DNA of 64,000 nt from a virus (IMGVR_UViG_3300028832_000095:137896-201895), one strand, 5' to 3'; counted from the stretch's first letter, positions 15,880-24,078 are shown. Program-made: numbers and translations. Notes: a model not told the origin generated them from the letters alone.

Positions 15880-15927
15880 AACAATTAACCATAGGATTCA
15901 AACTCCTCTGGTTAATTGTTTAGGAGT
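15880..15927 (+). promoter_or_regulatory. leader hairpin with anti-SD upstream of RNA ligase
   Basis: AACAATTAACCA/TGGTTAATTGTT stem, inner AGGA/TCCT, loop TTCAAAC; ACTCCT is complementary to the RBS AGGAGT. Confidence 0.6.
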
Positions 15928-15933
15928 GATTGT

Positions 15934-17025
15934 ATGTTAAAAGTATCTAAGTTTATTCGTGACAACAATAATTGGGAAGAGTTGTTACGGTCTGATCCAT
16001 ACAATGTATCAATTAAACATCAAAATAACCTCATTCTTCTTAATTATATTCAAGGAGCATCTACTGTTTGTGATATAACAAATGAGTGTAGAGGTCTTGT
16101 TCTTGACATTGCAGATGAAAGAAATCCAAAAGTGGTTCGGTGTGGATTTTATAGATTCTTCAATCTTGGAGATCCTAATGCAGTTACTATTGGAAATCAT
16201 ATTACAGCATATGAAAAAGTTGATGGATCACTTGTGTTCCTTTACTTTGTAAACGATAAATGGTGTTTTGGAACAAGAAATACATTTGATCTTGAAGTAG
16301 ATGAAGTTACAGCCGGAAATACACCTAAACTTAGAAAAATGGCTAAACAGATTCGCAGTGTACTGAATCCAAACATTTTTGATTCCCTCAATAAGAACTT
16401 TACATACTGTTTTGAGTTTGTATCTCCTGATTTCCAAATTATTGTTCCTTATGAGAAACCGGATATGTATCTACTTATGATTAGGAATAATAATACATTG
16501 GAAGAGGTTGAAACTGCTATTTCTGTTGAATTCAAAAAGCCGAAAGTATATAGTCTTAATTCTATTTCTGAAATTGAAAAGTATGTATCTCAATTCTCGG
16601 CAACTGAGTTTGAGGGCATTGTTGTCAAAGACGAAAACAATAATCGTATTAAGATCAAAAACCTTAATTGGCTTCAACTTCACTATCTGTATAATAACGG
16701 TCAGTTTTCAGATAGATACTTTATTCATTTGTATATGAATGATGACTATCAGGAGCTTTTAAGTTATTTCACAAACCTGAAAGAACGGTTTAACAAGGTT
16801 GTGAATAGATATAACACGATTAAAGAAGCTGCCAGATTGATGGATAATATTCCTGTTAATACTATTATGACTAAAAAACAATTCTTTGAACTTGTAGATA
16901 GAACAGTTAAAGACAAAGGTTTTCAAATGCTTGCTTTGAAGTCCTATAATAATTGTGCATATAACTGGTTTTGTATGTTAGATGAACATTGGTATTCACA
17001 TTATTTTGTAGGAGAAGAAAGATGA
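15934..17025 (+). CDS. RNA ligase, T4 Rnl1-like
   Basis: ECRGLV, RFFNLG, EKVDGSL (motif I), FEFVSP, FEGIVV, RIKIKN. Confidence 0.9.
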   Translation: MLKVSKFIRDNNNWEELLRSDPYNVSIKHQNNLILLNYIQGASTVCDITNECRGLVLDIADERNPKVVRCGFYRFFNLGDPNAVTIGNHITAYEKVDGSLVFLYFVNDKWCFGTRNTFDLEVDEVTAGNTPKLRKMAKQIRSVLNPNIFDSLNKNFTYCFEFVSPDFQIIVPYEKPDMYLLMIRNNNTLEEVETAISVEFKKPKVYSLNSISEIEKYVSQFSATEFEGIVVKDENNNRIKIKNLNWLQLHYLYNNGQFSDRYFIHLYMNDDYQELLSYFTNLKERFNKVVNRYNTIKEAARLMDNIPVNTIMTKKQFFELVDRTVKDKGFQMLALKSYNNCAYNWFCMLDEHWYSHYFVGEER

Positions 17026-17945
17026 TTACTTTATTTATGACAATTGGACTTCCCGGTTCTGGAAAATCTCATTGGGCATCTGAACAGGATGCAAAAGTTG
17101 TATCTTCGGATGCTATCAGGGAAGAACTGTTTGGAGATGTAAATGATCAGAATTATAATAATGAAGTATTCAACGAAGTACATAACCGTATTCAGAACTA
17201 CCTTAAACAGCGGTTTAATGTAGTTTATGATGCAACCAATCTCAGCAGTAAGAGAAGAAAAGGATTTCTTAATACTGTTCCTGAATTTGTAAGAAAGGTT
17301 GCTGTTGTATTCTGTACTGATTATAGTATTTGTCTTAAAAGAAATGCAGAAAGAGAAAGACACGTTCCGGAAGAAGTTATTGAACGTATGTATAAAAGAA
17401 TCACTCTTCCTACACATTTAGAAGGATTCGATCAGATTGAATATATTTTCTGTCCGGAAAATGATAAAACAGAACTTGACTATTATCTTGAAACAGTTGG
17501 TTATAATCAGGATAATCCTCATCACAGTCTTACTCTTGACAAGCATCTTGAAAAAGCATATAATCTTGCTCATGAAAAAGGATCTGACCTTAATGATTAT
17601 GATAAAGAAATTCTTTGTAGGGCTGCTTTGATGCATGATGTTGGAAAGCCTGTTTGTAAAACATATGAACTTTTCTCCGGAAAAGTAGATGATCATGCAC
17701 ACTATTATAATCATGCTAATGTAGGAGCATATAAGATTCTTTGTTCAAGACCTATTATTTTTGGGTTAGATAAAATTCATAATAGAATGGAAAGACAGAA
17801 ATTAGTCGCTATTGCTACACTTATTCAGTTACATATGAACTTCTTTGACAGCAACTTCTCACTTAATGAATATAGAAAATACTACGAAAATAACCTCATT
17901 ACACTCCTTGAAATTTTACATGAGTGTGATGTAGAAGCGCATTAA
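17022..17945 (+). CDS. polynucleotide kinase-like P-loop domain fused to HD phosphohydrolase
   Basis: GLPGSGKS, SDAIR, YDATN, RNAER; HH..H..LMHDVGKP..HANVGA..HM..D. Confidence 0.88.
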   Translation: MITLFMTIGLPGSGKSHWASEQDAKVVSSDAIREELFGDVNDQNYNNEVFNEVHNRIQNYLKQRFNVVYDATNLSSKRRKGFLNTVPEFVRKVAVVFCTDYSICLKRNAERERHVPEEVIERMYKRITLPTHLEGFDQIEYIFCPENDKTELDYYLETVGYNQDNPHHSLTLDKHLEKAYNLAHEKGSDLNDYDKEILCRAALMHDVGKPVCKTYELFSGKVDDHAHYYNHANVGAYKILCSRPIIFGLDKIHNRMERQKLVAIATLIQLHMNFFDSNFSLNEYRKYYENNLITLLEILHECDVEAH

Positions 17946-21400: not shown

Positions 21401-22198
21401 ATGCTCTATGTTAGTTTAATTATCATTGGATTTCTTTTATGTGTTTGTATTTATTTAATATATCAACTTAAAGGATCTGGTTCAAAACATAACAATGATA
21501 TGAAAGATCTTGATAATAGTTATGTGAAAAAACAAGAGCAACTTCAAAAAGACTTTGAATCTCGTGTAAATGATATAAATGCTAGATTTTATGAGATTCA
21601 ACAATCATATATACAAAAGGAACAATCTTATGATGTTGAGATACAAGATATATTATTTCGGCTAGAGAACTATAAAGAATTAGAAAATAAAGTTGTTGAA
21701 AAGTATAAACAAAAAGAGATTGATGAGAAACAAAGAGATTTTTATAGAATCATCCTAGAAAAGTCTGATCTCTCTGATGTTGAAAAGTTAAATGCTTTTG
21801 CCCCACAACTTTCAAAGCCAGTTGTATTGTATAAACTAATGTATGAGGTATATTACAAATCTAAATTGGAGGAACTATTTAAGAGGTTGATACCTAGTGA
21901 TTGCACATCTGGAGGAATATATAAAATAACAAATATAAAAAATAATAAATGCTATATTGGAAGAACAACTAATTTTCTAACTAGGTGGAGAGATCATGCT
22001 AAGTGTGGGATAGGTGCTGATTCCGGAGCGCAAGTAAGGAATAAGTTTTACGAAGCAATAAAAATGGATGGTATTGAAAATTTTACATTTGAAATTATTG
22101 ATAGGTGTGAAAAAGATATTCAACCAGAACGAGAAAAATTTTGGATTGATTATTATAAATCTACAGAATATGGATATAATACAGTATCAGGAGGTTAA
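21401..22198 (+). CDS. GIY-YIG nuclease-domain protein with N-terminal TM helix and coiled coil
   Basis: GIYKITN..CYIGRT..RW..H..F.FEII..E..WI..GYN. Confidence 0.85.
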   Translation: MLYVSLIIIGFLLCVCIYLIYQLKGSGSKHNNDMKDLDNSYVKKQEQLQKDFESRVNDINARFYEIQQSYIQKEQSYDVEIQDILFRLENYKELENKVVEKYKQKEIDEKQRDFYRIILEKSDLSDVEKLNAFAPQLSKPVVLYKLMYEVYYKSKLEELFKRLIPSDCTSGGIYKITNIKNNKCYIGRTTNFLTRWRDHAKCGIGADSGAQVRNKFYEAIKMDGIENFTFEIIDRCEKDIQPEREKFWIDYYKSTEYGYNTVSGG

Positions 22199-22203
22199 TA
22201 TTT

Positions 22204-23241
22204 ATGAAAAGTGTGTTTAATAAATGCTTGGCAATTCTAGTGTCTATTTGTATGGTTCCTTTGTTTAAGATCCATGTTGAAGCAAAGATAATTGAACCAG
22301 AAGTTGTAAAAACAGAAAAATGGACTACTTCTTATTTTATTGATGATGATATGGAAACTCTTTATCCATATGTTCAATGTGAAGCAGATATTTATAACGA
22401 TGGAACGATTAAATTCTATATGTGGAATACACATGAGTGGAATGGTTTTACAACATATGAACATAATTTATGTATTTGCGGAACACATATTTTTTATGAT
22501 GAAGATTCTATACCGTATCAGTATTATTTTGGGAAACGTGATGATTCTGGTATTCATTTTGAACAAGGAATGCTGGACAATACAATTTTGGAAGACGGTA
22601 TTGTACCAAATGATATAAATAATGAAAAAGTAGTTAATTTGTTTTTGAATTCTTTTAGTTATAAACCGTGTTCTTATGAGTTAGAATTATATGATTGTCC
22701 TATACCAGAGACAATAGGTGTTATAGGAAAGAAAGATTCATTTAAGACATTTCCTATATTTATTGATATGGTTAAAAATATTTCACTTCCGAAGTTTTCA
22801 GAATATTATTCAACTAAAAATAATCCAATAGTAAGGTTTACGTTAAAACCAAAAACAGAACCTATAAAACAGTATGATTTTAAATTATATGGTCACGGTA
22901 TCACGATTACACCAGAACTTCTTTCTGGTAGTGTGATAGCTACTCCGGAGCCTTCCGAACAAGAAAAACGTATTGCAGAACTAGAAGAACAGAATAAAAT
23001 ACTAATTGAACAGAATAATCAACTTGAAGCAGAGATTGATAGAATCAACGAAGAAAATAATCACCTAAGTTTTGAAAATGATAGACTTGAATATGAAGTA
23101 AAATCATTAAAATCTCAGCTTGATTCGATTTTAGTCGGTGATCTAAACAGTGATGGATCAATTGACATCCTTGATGCCATTGTAATTCGTAGATTCCTAG
23201 CAGGAACTATTGAAGAACTACCATATAAAGGAGGAGAATGA
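22204..23241 (+). CDS. secreted protein with coiled coil and C-terminal single dockerin repeat
   Basis: signal peptide ending VEA; heptad region; GDLNSDGSIDILDAIVIRRFLAGTIEELP. Confidence 0.8.
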   Translation: MKSVFNKCLAILVSICMVPLFKIHVEAKIIEPEVVKTEKWTTSYFIDDDMETLYPYVQCEADIYNDGTIKFYMWNTHEWNGFTTYEHNLCICGTHIFYDEDSIPYQYYFGKRDDSGIHFEQGMLDNTILEDGIVPNDINNEKVVNLFLNSFSYKPCSYELELYDCPIPETIGVIGKKDSFKTFPIFIDMVKNISLPKFSEYYSTKNNPIVRFTLKPKTEPIKQYDFKLYGHGITITPELLSGSVIATPEPSEQEKRIAELEEQNKILIEQNNQLEAEIDRINEENNHLSFENDRLEYEVKSLKSQLDSILVGDLNSDGSIDILDAIVIRRFLAGTIEELPYKGGE

Positions 23242-23876
23242 ATATGTCAACCATGTCAGAGTGGGCAAGAAGAGAAGTTGAGATTGCCTGTAAAAAAGAA
23301 GCACCTAACCGAAAAGAATGTGAGTGGGATTATGGTTGTTCATGTTATGAATCAGCCTTAAAAGCATTTGAATCTTTATGTGAAGATGGTCATAGTGGAT
23401 ATAGTTTTTCTGTTACAAGAAATATTCTTACAAGACTTATGAATCATTATCCACTTACTCCAATCAATGATGATGAAACATGGGGAGAGTCAGATCAGTG
23501 TGCAAGAATGTCCTCTCTTTTTCGGGAAACAGATGAAAATGGCAACATCTTATATTCAGATGTAGATAGAGTTATTTGTATTGATACAGAAGATGGATGT
23601 ACTTTTACAAATGGATTCATTACACGGATGATTGATAAGATGTTTCCAATAAAAATGCCATATTATCCGAATGGAAAATATCATGTTGAAGTTGAACATC
23701 TTTCTACTACAAATGATCCGGATAGTTTTGATACCATTATTATTCATTCTATTAAACATCCTGATGGACACACAACGAAAGATTTTATTGCATTCGCAGA
23801 AGATACGGAAGGTAAATTACATAAAATTAGTGAGGAAGAGTTATTGGTTAGAAGAAAAATGGCAGAAATGAGGTGA
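23238..23876 (+). CDS. phage hypothetical protein
   Basis: GHSGYS..PLTPI..RMSSLFR..FPIKMPYYP motifs. Confidence 0.75.
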   Translation: MNMSTMSEWARREVEIACKKEAPNRKECEWDYGCSCYESALKAFESLCEDGHSGYSFSVTRNILTRLMNHYPLTPINDDETWGESDQCARMSSLFRETDENGNILYSDVDRVICIDTEDGCTFTNGFITRMIDKMFPIKMPYYPNGKYHVEVEHLSTTNDPDSFDTIIIHSIKHPDGHTTKDFIAFAEDTEGKLHKISEEELLVRRKMAEMR

Positions 23877-24042: not shown

Positions 24043-24078
24043 AAGTACCTGACAGATTAGTTAGGTACTTTACTTTTG
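24043..24078 (+). terminator. Rho-independent terminator
   Basis: AAGTACCTGAC/GTTAGGTACTT stem then a T-rich tract. Confidence 0.65.

Follow-up and report, generated by a model that had tools for sequence, protein, structure and literature searches.

Why would a rumen phage encode a secreted protein that ends in half of a dockerin, the cohesin-binding module of cellulosome-producing bacteria? The question is raised by a gene on the + strand at positions 22204-23241 of IMGVR_UViG_3300028832_000095:137896-201895, a stretch of 64,000 nucleotides that was analysed as a whole (hereafter, the window) and that forms the final 64 kb of one 201,895-bp virus record (CheckV completeness 84%). The gene consists of 345 open codons and a stop, giving a protein of 345 residues. 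A sequence-only reading had divided this protein into a signal peptide, a unique domain of about 220 residues, a heptad coiled coil of about 55 residues, and a single dockerin repeat, and had proposed that dimerisation could rebuild a two-fold dockerin able to dock on host scaffoldins. The answer towards which we lean, from sequence features and by analogy with a known complex, is that the protein is exported through the Sec pathway, pairs as a homodimer through a leucine zipper, and docks its two half-dockerins on one host cohesin, so that a hypervariable domain would be displayed. In this way the phage would probably equip the host surface with a two-chain protein that it encodes itself.

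The dockerin repeat begins at G312 (nucleotide 23137), exactly where the sequence-only reading had placed it. Together with a short tail, it covers residues 312-345 (23137..23238, + strand) and comprises a calcium (Ca) loop, a helix at residues 322-332, and the tail EELPYKGGE. In dockerins, the Ca-ligand positions (1, 3, 5, 9, and 12) and the canonical recognition positions (10, 11, 18, and 22) have been defined (PMC4582956); the ligand positions are here occupied by D313, N315, D317, D321, and D324. The hidden Markov model search proposed as a check does recover the repeat, as Pfam Dockerin_1 (PF00404) aligns with residues 312-333, over model positions 2-23 of 57 only (E 4.4e-4). When the protein was compared with the PDB using phmmer, the best match was the A. 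cellulolyticus ScaB dockerin 4UYQ (4uyq_B, E 7.4e-6), followed by the C. thermocellum CelS (Cel48S) dockerin 1DAQ (6.3e-5) and A. cellulolyticus DocCel5 5NRK (1.4e-4). The best matches are thus type-I clostridial dockerins, with which the window's repeat has in common the GD.N.DG...D loop, a basic pair at positions 17/18 (here Arg-Arg), and an LPY-type tail (here 11 residues long). With Ile322-Leu323 at positions 10/11, the repeat looks like a clostridial type-I-like subtype.

Type-I dockerins combine two repeats and a linker helix in one chain, whereas the window's protein has one repeat per chain, behind a coiled coil. No second dockerin repeat was detected in any frame of the 201,895-bp genome (six-frame Dockerin_1 search, E <= 10), which excludes a second half-dockerin partner elsewhere in the phage for the sequenced 84% of the genome. 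A six-frame search of the phage genome with a cohesin model gave no match either.

Is the missing half an accident of this gene? Its relatives indicate otherwise. The domain that had been called unique instead defines a large family, with more than 140 sequence clusters from phage contigs and from Ruminococcus and Oscillospiraceae genomes. A search of 5.8 billion proteins returned 120 matches at E <= 1e-17, and an exhaustive HMMER search of 1.84 billion representatives (at 50% identity) returned 77 matches at E <= 1e-10. In every listed member, the signal peptide gives way to a near-invariant mature N-terminus of the type KVIEPEIVKTE.WTTSYYIDDD, which the window's protein shares along with a GHDITITPELLSG-type motif (alignment A1). 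Among 142 members scanned for repeats, 124 have exactly one and 16 have none (these being fragments or slightly off-pattern). A true second repeat is absent from all 142, as the two apparent second matches fall in the cargo domain, that is, the domain between signal peptide and zipper. Ordinary dockerins recovered by the same search have paired repeats, 32-36 residues apart. With one repeat in 124 of 142 members and no second one anywhere, the single repeat is a conserved state and not a truncation.

The repeat itself (residues 311-334 of the alignment; 24-33 residues long) is variable, with a mean pairwise identity of 0.39 across the family, and Dockerin_1 matches 19 of 48 members at E <= 0.01. 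This variation is not evenly spread. In a logo of 87 distinct repeats, positions 1, 3, 5, 6, 9, 12, and 13 are kept while 10, 11, 14, 18, and 22 vary, so that the Ca-ligand positions are conserved and the canonical cohesin-recognition positions (10, 11, 18, and 22) are variable. Identity to the window's protein ranges from 0.56 to 0.79 in the N-terminal frame and from 0.17 to 0.77 in the repeat. As the former is steady and the latter wide, repeat subtype is not tied to cargo, and the alignments point to an exchange of modules.

The second element of the argument is the coiled coil. The heptad coil announced by the sequence-only reading is present, as a leucine zipper of eight heptads at residues 252-311 (22957..23136, + strand): heptad scoring gives one clear frame over these residues (11.5, versus 0.5 for the next best), and AlphaFold2 models them as a single long helix. 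Position a is occupied by I257, N264, N271, I278, N285, N292, V299, and L306, and position d by L260, L267, L274, I281, L288, L295, L302, and I309, that is, by Leu or Ile in all eight heptads. The core is kept across the family: in the first two heptads of 48 aligned members, I257 is found in 40, L260 in 44, N264 in 43, and L267 in 47. Coil plus linker measure 23-61 residues across the family (one member with an insertion excepted), the window's coil being the longest. Asn at a combined with Leu at d is the pattern by which parallel, in-register dimeric zippers, such as those of GCN4 and other bZIP proteins, are classically recognised. The conserved Ile-Leu-Asn-Leu core therefore points, as far as such sequence rules go, to a parallel dimer. 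In line with this, the zipper gives weak Pfam matches to bZIP_1, bZIP_2, and HALZ (as well as to DivIC and YabA), and resembles GCN4/bZIP zippers in its Leu-type d positions and its buried Asn at a; it differs from them in being predicted extracellular, in lacking a basic DNA-binding region, and in having four position-a Asn rather than one.

Zipper and single repeat also occur together outside the family, behind the unrelated secreted cargo domains of proteins P0169 and P0240, and behind almost no cargo in P0204 (126 residues). In all three proteins, the zipper precedes a single type-I-like repeat ending ELPY, and the signal peptide of P0169 is nearly the same as that of family member P0003. 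The likeness of these two signals and the presence of a zipper-repeat unit on unrelated cargo suggest that cassettes have been exchanged between genes.

Single-repeat dockerins, which the sequence-only reading had not taken into account, are already known. Ruminococcus flavefaciens FD-1 has five group-2 dockerins, each with a single C-terminal Ca-binding repeat (Rincon et al. 2010, PMC2930009; Duarte et al. 2025, PMC12270676), which bind the cohesin of the cell-wall-anchored scaffoldin ScaE and have been described as the sole known functional, naturally truncated dockerins (PMC12270676). In PDB 9GVB, two RfDoc2 copies lie antiparallel on one ScaE cohesin, mimicking a full dockerin, and the four chain ends are close, a two-copy binding of ScaE that is known for RfDoc2 only (PMC12270676). 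The same study reports 1:1 as well as 2:1 complexes, and full affinity for truncated type-I dockerins (the N-terminal half of CtDocCel48S and BcDocCel48's C-terminal half); neither coiled coils nor zippers nor phages are mentioned in it.

How close are the family's repeats to this precedent? Family member P0070 matches 9gvb_B at E 2.6e-13 (over 44 residues, about 70% are identical), and two group-4 dockerins, 8AJY (8ajy_B, E 6.8e-9) and 4IU2, are likewise among its matches. Of 93 distinct family repeats, 12 have Gly-Arg at positions 10/11, which is the recognition pair in groups 2 and 4. Two residues before the loop, at position -2, Phe29 holds the two copies together in 9GVB; in 43 of the 93 family repeats, an aromatic residue (Tyr, Phe, or Trp) stands there. 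The median family tail is 21 residues. Kinship with group-2 dockerins is thus found within the family. The window's own protein shares with RfDoc2 one Ca loop and helix at the C-terminus of a predicted secreted protein, as well as the Ca-ligand pattern, and the RfDoc2 pair on one cohesin is the arrangement that a parallel zipper would favour here. It differs in being phage-encoded, in having a conserved zipper before the repeat, and in its 11-residue tail, which is not helical in the AlphaFold2 model, leaving no second helix; its position -2 is Val. We therefore file the window's repeat, by analogy, as one that would work like a group-2 dockerin without being a member of that sequence group. 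The idea of two half-dockerins rebuilding a two-fold dockerin keeps its structural side, for which 9GVB offers an experimental precedent and with which the conserved zipper core fits. More broadly, the family spans several dockerin subtypes, while group 2 of PMC12270676 consists of five sequences from one strain.

A docking protein supposes a host with cohesins, and the sequence-only reading had indeed pointed to a cellulosomal host. The zipper-half-dockerin family is rare in bacterial genomes: only three of 185,579 species representatives have it, namely Ruminococcus sp. XPD3002, a Ruminococcus metagenome-assembled genome (MAG), and an Oscillospiraceae MAG, and, within the carrier's family, the carrier itself is the only one of 301 sampled genomes with the gene. 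All three carriers have cohesins (11, 1, and 16 matches), versus 109 (27%) of 401 sampled genomes of the same bacterial family. Ruminococcus sp. XPD3002 encodes at least 110 dockerins, and the repeat of the family member encoded there shares 56-65% identity with the dockerin repeats of that genome, mostly the second of each pair. The claim of a cellulosomal host is thus supported for the family, but not for this particular phage, as a search of 401 genomes with the window's repeat gave 40-55% identity in 48 genomes and no clear best match.

From these elements, the following course of events can be proposed. The infected cell would export the protein through the Sec pathway and remove its signal peptide. 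Two chains would then pair in parallel through the leucine zipper with its Asn at a, as sequence rules suggest, and pairing would bring two identical single-repeat dockerins next to each other at the tip of a stalk, forming a symmetric, Ca-bound, dockerin-like unit. By analogy with 9GVB, this unit could fill the binding face of one host cohesin, taking up both of its halves. So docked, the dimer would be held on the surface of a Ruminococcus-type host that bears cohesins, where two orphan beta-rich domains with a hypervariable middle would be displayed. Dimerisation, cohesin binding, and stoichiometry are all inferred here, from sequence and from analogy. What the phage would gain is conjecture: most likely, the surface presented by the infected cell would be altered; anchoring cohesins might be occupied or competed for, and possible aims might include excluding other phages, keeping progeny off debris, or releasing the cell or the cellulosome. 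The roles named by the sequence-only reading (receptor masking, superinfection exclusion, and cellulosome hijack) are equally conjectural.

Several observations weigh against such paired docking on a cohesin. The Dockerin_1 score of the window's protein is 20.8 bits in hmmscan, under the curated cut-off of 22.9, because half of the model is unmatched (the six-frame genome search gave 22.8 bits, and 23.3 with neighbours). The protein has no match to 9GVB or 8AJY at E <= 10 (phmmer versus PDB); positions 10/11 of its repeat are Ile-Leu, not Gly-Arg, and the long tail from which RfDoc2 makes its second helix is missing. Four position-a Asn in eight heptads would weaken the zipper, and, in the shortest family members, the helix enters the Ca loop directly, leaving little slack for an antiparallel arrangement of the repeats. 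The host search without a clear best match, mentioned above, tells in the same direction, and fold and library searches tie the cargo domain to no activity.

Three other explanations have to be considered. The repeat might bind a cohesin alone, one chain per site, with the coil serving as a spacer stalk or as an element that oligomerises the cargo, possibly as a trimer. The reported 1:1 complexes and the full affinity of truncated type-I dockerins acting alone (PMC12270676) fit this explanation, as does the wide variation in coil length, 23-61 residues, which is what one expects of a spacer. Nevertheless, it is the dimer-type Ile-Leu-Asn-Leu core that is conserved and not the length; in a parallel dimer, the two repeats necessarily end up adjacent, and in 9GVB one cohesin accommodates such a pair; and zipper and repeat move together onto unrelated cargo domains. 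We consider this explanation unlikely, if still worth keeping in mind. Nor do we find it probable, and here our doubt is slightly stronger, that the repeat is an EF-hand-like, Ca-binding cap or a self-association element that has no cohesin partner, the protein being a free secreted factor, a wall adhesin, or a carbohydrate binder acting through its aromatic-rich beta domain. Dockerin-like repeats are common outside cellulosomes (in a control, Dockerin_1 at the permissive threshold of E <= 10 matched 8 of 14 non-cellulosomal genomes), the score of the window's repeat is under the cut-off, the conserved cargo frame is rich in Trp and Tyr, and the domain has a weak fold likeness to Gram-positive adhesin beta-sandwiches (Z 3.4-4.2). 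However, these fold matches lie below any trustworthy level, the family includes true group-2 repeats (P0070), the repeat of the XPD3002 member resembles the dockerins of its own genome, the bacterial carriers bear cohesins, and variation falls on the canonical cohesin-recognition positions.

A decaying dockerin gene, which would have lost its second repeat by frameshift or deletion and would have no special function, is the least credible alternative, and a highly improbable one. That only half of the Dockerin_1 model is matched is what decay would produce; but the genome retains no trace of a second repeat in any frame, none of the 142 relatives scanned has one, and the reading frame is intact and conserved, with a stop codon that overlaps the next start in a compact operon. 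Decay or truncation is thus contradicted by the data. A structural role in the virion is unlikely for the protein, given its signal peptide and the location of its gene among accessory genes.

What is apparently new is the conserved zipper that would pre-pair two half-dockerins, the carriage by phages, and a hypervariable cargo domain with no recognisable fold. Single-repeat dockerins, which had passed for a peculiarity of one R. flavefaciens strain with five such proteins, are now found in more than 140 clusters and several subtypes, in phages and mobile elements. As the half-dockerin is almost always located behind a dimer-type zipper, the family would also provide a natural reason for the crystal complex with two dockerins per cohesin. 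If the binding is real, viruses insert proteins of their own into the network of cohesins by which the main fibre-degrading machinery of the rumen is kept on the cell; dockerin subtype could then mark the host range of uncultured rumen phages, and the unit could serve as a compact, self-pairing docking tag for designer cellulosomes. A bolder proposal, which we put forward tentatively and regard as doubtful, is that rumen phages and mobile elements carry widespread, hitherto undescribed docking modules, in which a zipper pre-assembles two half-dockerins into a symmetric plug for an anchoring cohesin, and with which a hypervariable protein is grafted onto the cellulosome anchoring sites of Ruminococcus during infection, in competition with the cellulosome. 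Should this be the case, it would constitute a new viral way to remodel, mask, or unhook the fibre-degrading machinery of the host.

The rest of the protein supports export and gives some indication of what would be displayed. Residues 1-27 (22204..22284, + strand) form a predicted Sec-type signal peptide, as had been claimed from the sequence: the n/h/c layout can be read directly and ends at the cleavage site VEA|K, and in each listed homologue a signal of this kind is followed by A|KVIEPE. The cargo domain (residues 28-251) is beta-rich, and its AlphaFold2 model reaches a predicted local distance difference test (pLDDT) score of 79 and a predicted template modelling score (pTM) of 0.79. Conservation divides it into three parts. 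The N-terminal part, residues 28-95 (22285..22488, + strand), has the motifs KIIEPEVVKTEKWTTSYFIDDD, YPYVQCEADIYNDG, and WNTHEW, a mean pairwise identity of 0.75 across the family, a length of 67-72 residues, and a pLDDT of 84-96 in the domain model; W40, S43, Y44, D47, Y54, P55, Y56, A61, D62, I63, Y64, G67, W74, N75, E78, and G81 are invariant. It is followed by the hypervariable middle, residues 96-215 (22489..22848, + strand), where mean pairwise identity falls to 0.18, length varies from 57 to 159 residues in 48 members, and model confidence is low (pLDDT of about 40-60 in parts). The third part, residues 216-251 (22849..22956, + strand), consists of conserved C-terminal strands and a hinge, with the motif LYGHGITITPELLSG (family consensus FRLFGHDITITPELLSG). 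P216, H231, and L240 are invariant across the family alignment, and the conserved block 216-270 has a mean pairwise identity of 0.56 and a length of 51-78 residues. Trp and Tyr abound in the conserved frame, which also contains invariant Asp, Asn, Glu, and His residues; at a guess, this would suit a binding site.

Structural searches with the cargo domain gave no convincing match in the PDB (Foldseek, best E 0.36) and only E 0.08 at best in BFVD. A VIA-align comparison with 48,161 chains peaked at Z 4.2 (Fap1, haemolysins, PsrP), under the trustworthy level, its weak resemblances (Z 3.4-4.2) being to Gram-positive adhesin beta-sandwiches and beta-pore-forming toxins. The ESM Atlas returned nothing usable for the domain, and a VIA search with the whole protein found coiled coils only. 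These null results from Foldseek, VIA-align, and the ESM Atlas do not prove a novel fold. PHROGs (E >= 5.7e-4) and PADLOC (>= 0.007) gave coiled-coil noise only.

If the protein does act at the cell surface, the closest functional parallels may be phage proteins for superinfection exclusion or receptor masking, such as lactococcal Sie2009, S. thermophilus Ltp, and T5 Llp. Like them, it is phage-encoded, exported to the surface (as predicted here), accessory, and located among arms-race genes; they are anchored by a membrane helix or a lipid, whereas it would be anchored by a putative dockerin. Searches of PHROGs, PADLOC, and BFVD gave no clear sequence or fold similarity to such proteins, and no clear match to anti-phage defence families.

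Where do other copies of the gene reside? The family is not phage-specific, as copies are found in bacterial genomes and in bacterial-type metagenome contigs. Across copies, neighbours include an integrase with a dockerin open reading frame, a resolvase, type I restriction-modification genes (twice), a NERD nuclease, two full-dockerin proteins, and housekeeping genes. Phage-like contig L003 carries the gene and has six other genes in common with this phage; phage-like contig L015 carries it behind the same upstream GIY-YIG gene, at 47% identity (L015 9144-10004). In three bacterial-type metagenome contigs (L023 107-5890, L028 44-1309, and L026 498-1865), members lie directly after HsdM/HsdS/HsdR type I genes or a gene with a NERD nuclease domain, settings that resemble defence islands. 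In L019 (4763-11158), the member is located between two full two-repeat dockerin proteins, one of which has a heparinase II/III-like domain, so that this copy lies inside a cellulosome-type gene neighbourhood. As regards viral sequences, tblastn did not find the gene in 50,697 GenBank phage records, a viral scan with the family alignment recovered one other contig only, and viral contig scans with P0169 and P0204 gave no matches. A database search with residues 270-345 alone returned only the window's own protein.

The phage setting of the window's copy is clear. The 201,895-bp record contains a NAD-dependent DNA ligase, an RnlA-like RNA ligase, a tail fibre, an endolysin, and an SbcD-like exonuclease, which confirms that it is a phage; every large open reading frame is on one strand, G+C content is about 32%, and the source is a rumen phage of about 200 kb. 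The half-dockerin gene (22204..23241, + strand) sits within a run of small genes, and its stop overlaps the start of the next gene (ATGA). An alternative gene call, P0002, begins at the internal Met17 (329 residues) and would drop the signal peptide present in every homologue. A GGAGG ribosome-binding site, read from the sequence at 22190-22194 (+ strand), lies 9 nucleotides before the first ATG and thus supports the 345-residue form with its signal peptide.

The product of the upstream gene (21401-22198, + strand) combines a hydrophobic helix at its N-terminus with a long stretch that resembles a coiled coil and with a GIY-YIG nuclease domain (Pfam E 1.5e-10); in PADLOC, it matches homing endonucleases and UzuA (3e-7). 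Anchoring of a GIY-YIG protein in the membrane would be unusual. The downstream gene (23238-23876, + strand) matches Pfam Tad3, a type I Thoeris inhibitor (E 4e-24, 85 bits; residues 4-117 of 212), and is a candidate anti-defence gene of the phage; a terminator-like hairpin is found 3' of it, at 24043-24070. With the GIY-YIG nuclease gene before it and the Tad3-like anti-Thoeris gene after it, the half-dockerin gene is, to judge from these matches, in a region of accessory, arms-race type. Further upstream, at 15916-17945 (+ strand), an RnlA-like RNA ligase gene (PHROG 562) is followed by one for a protein with an AAA_33 kinase and an HD phosphatase-like part, and the two look like a T4-style RNA repair pair (Rnl plus Pnk-like).

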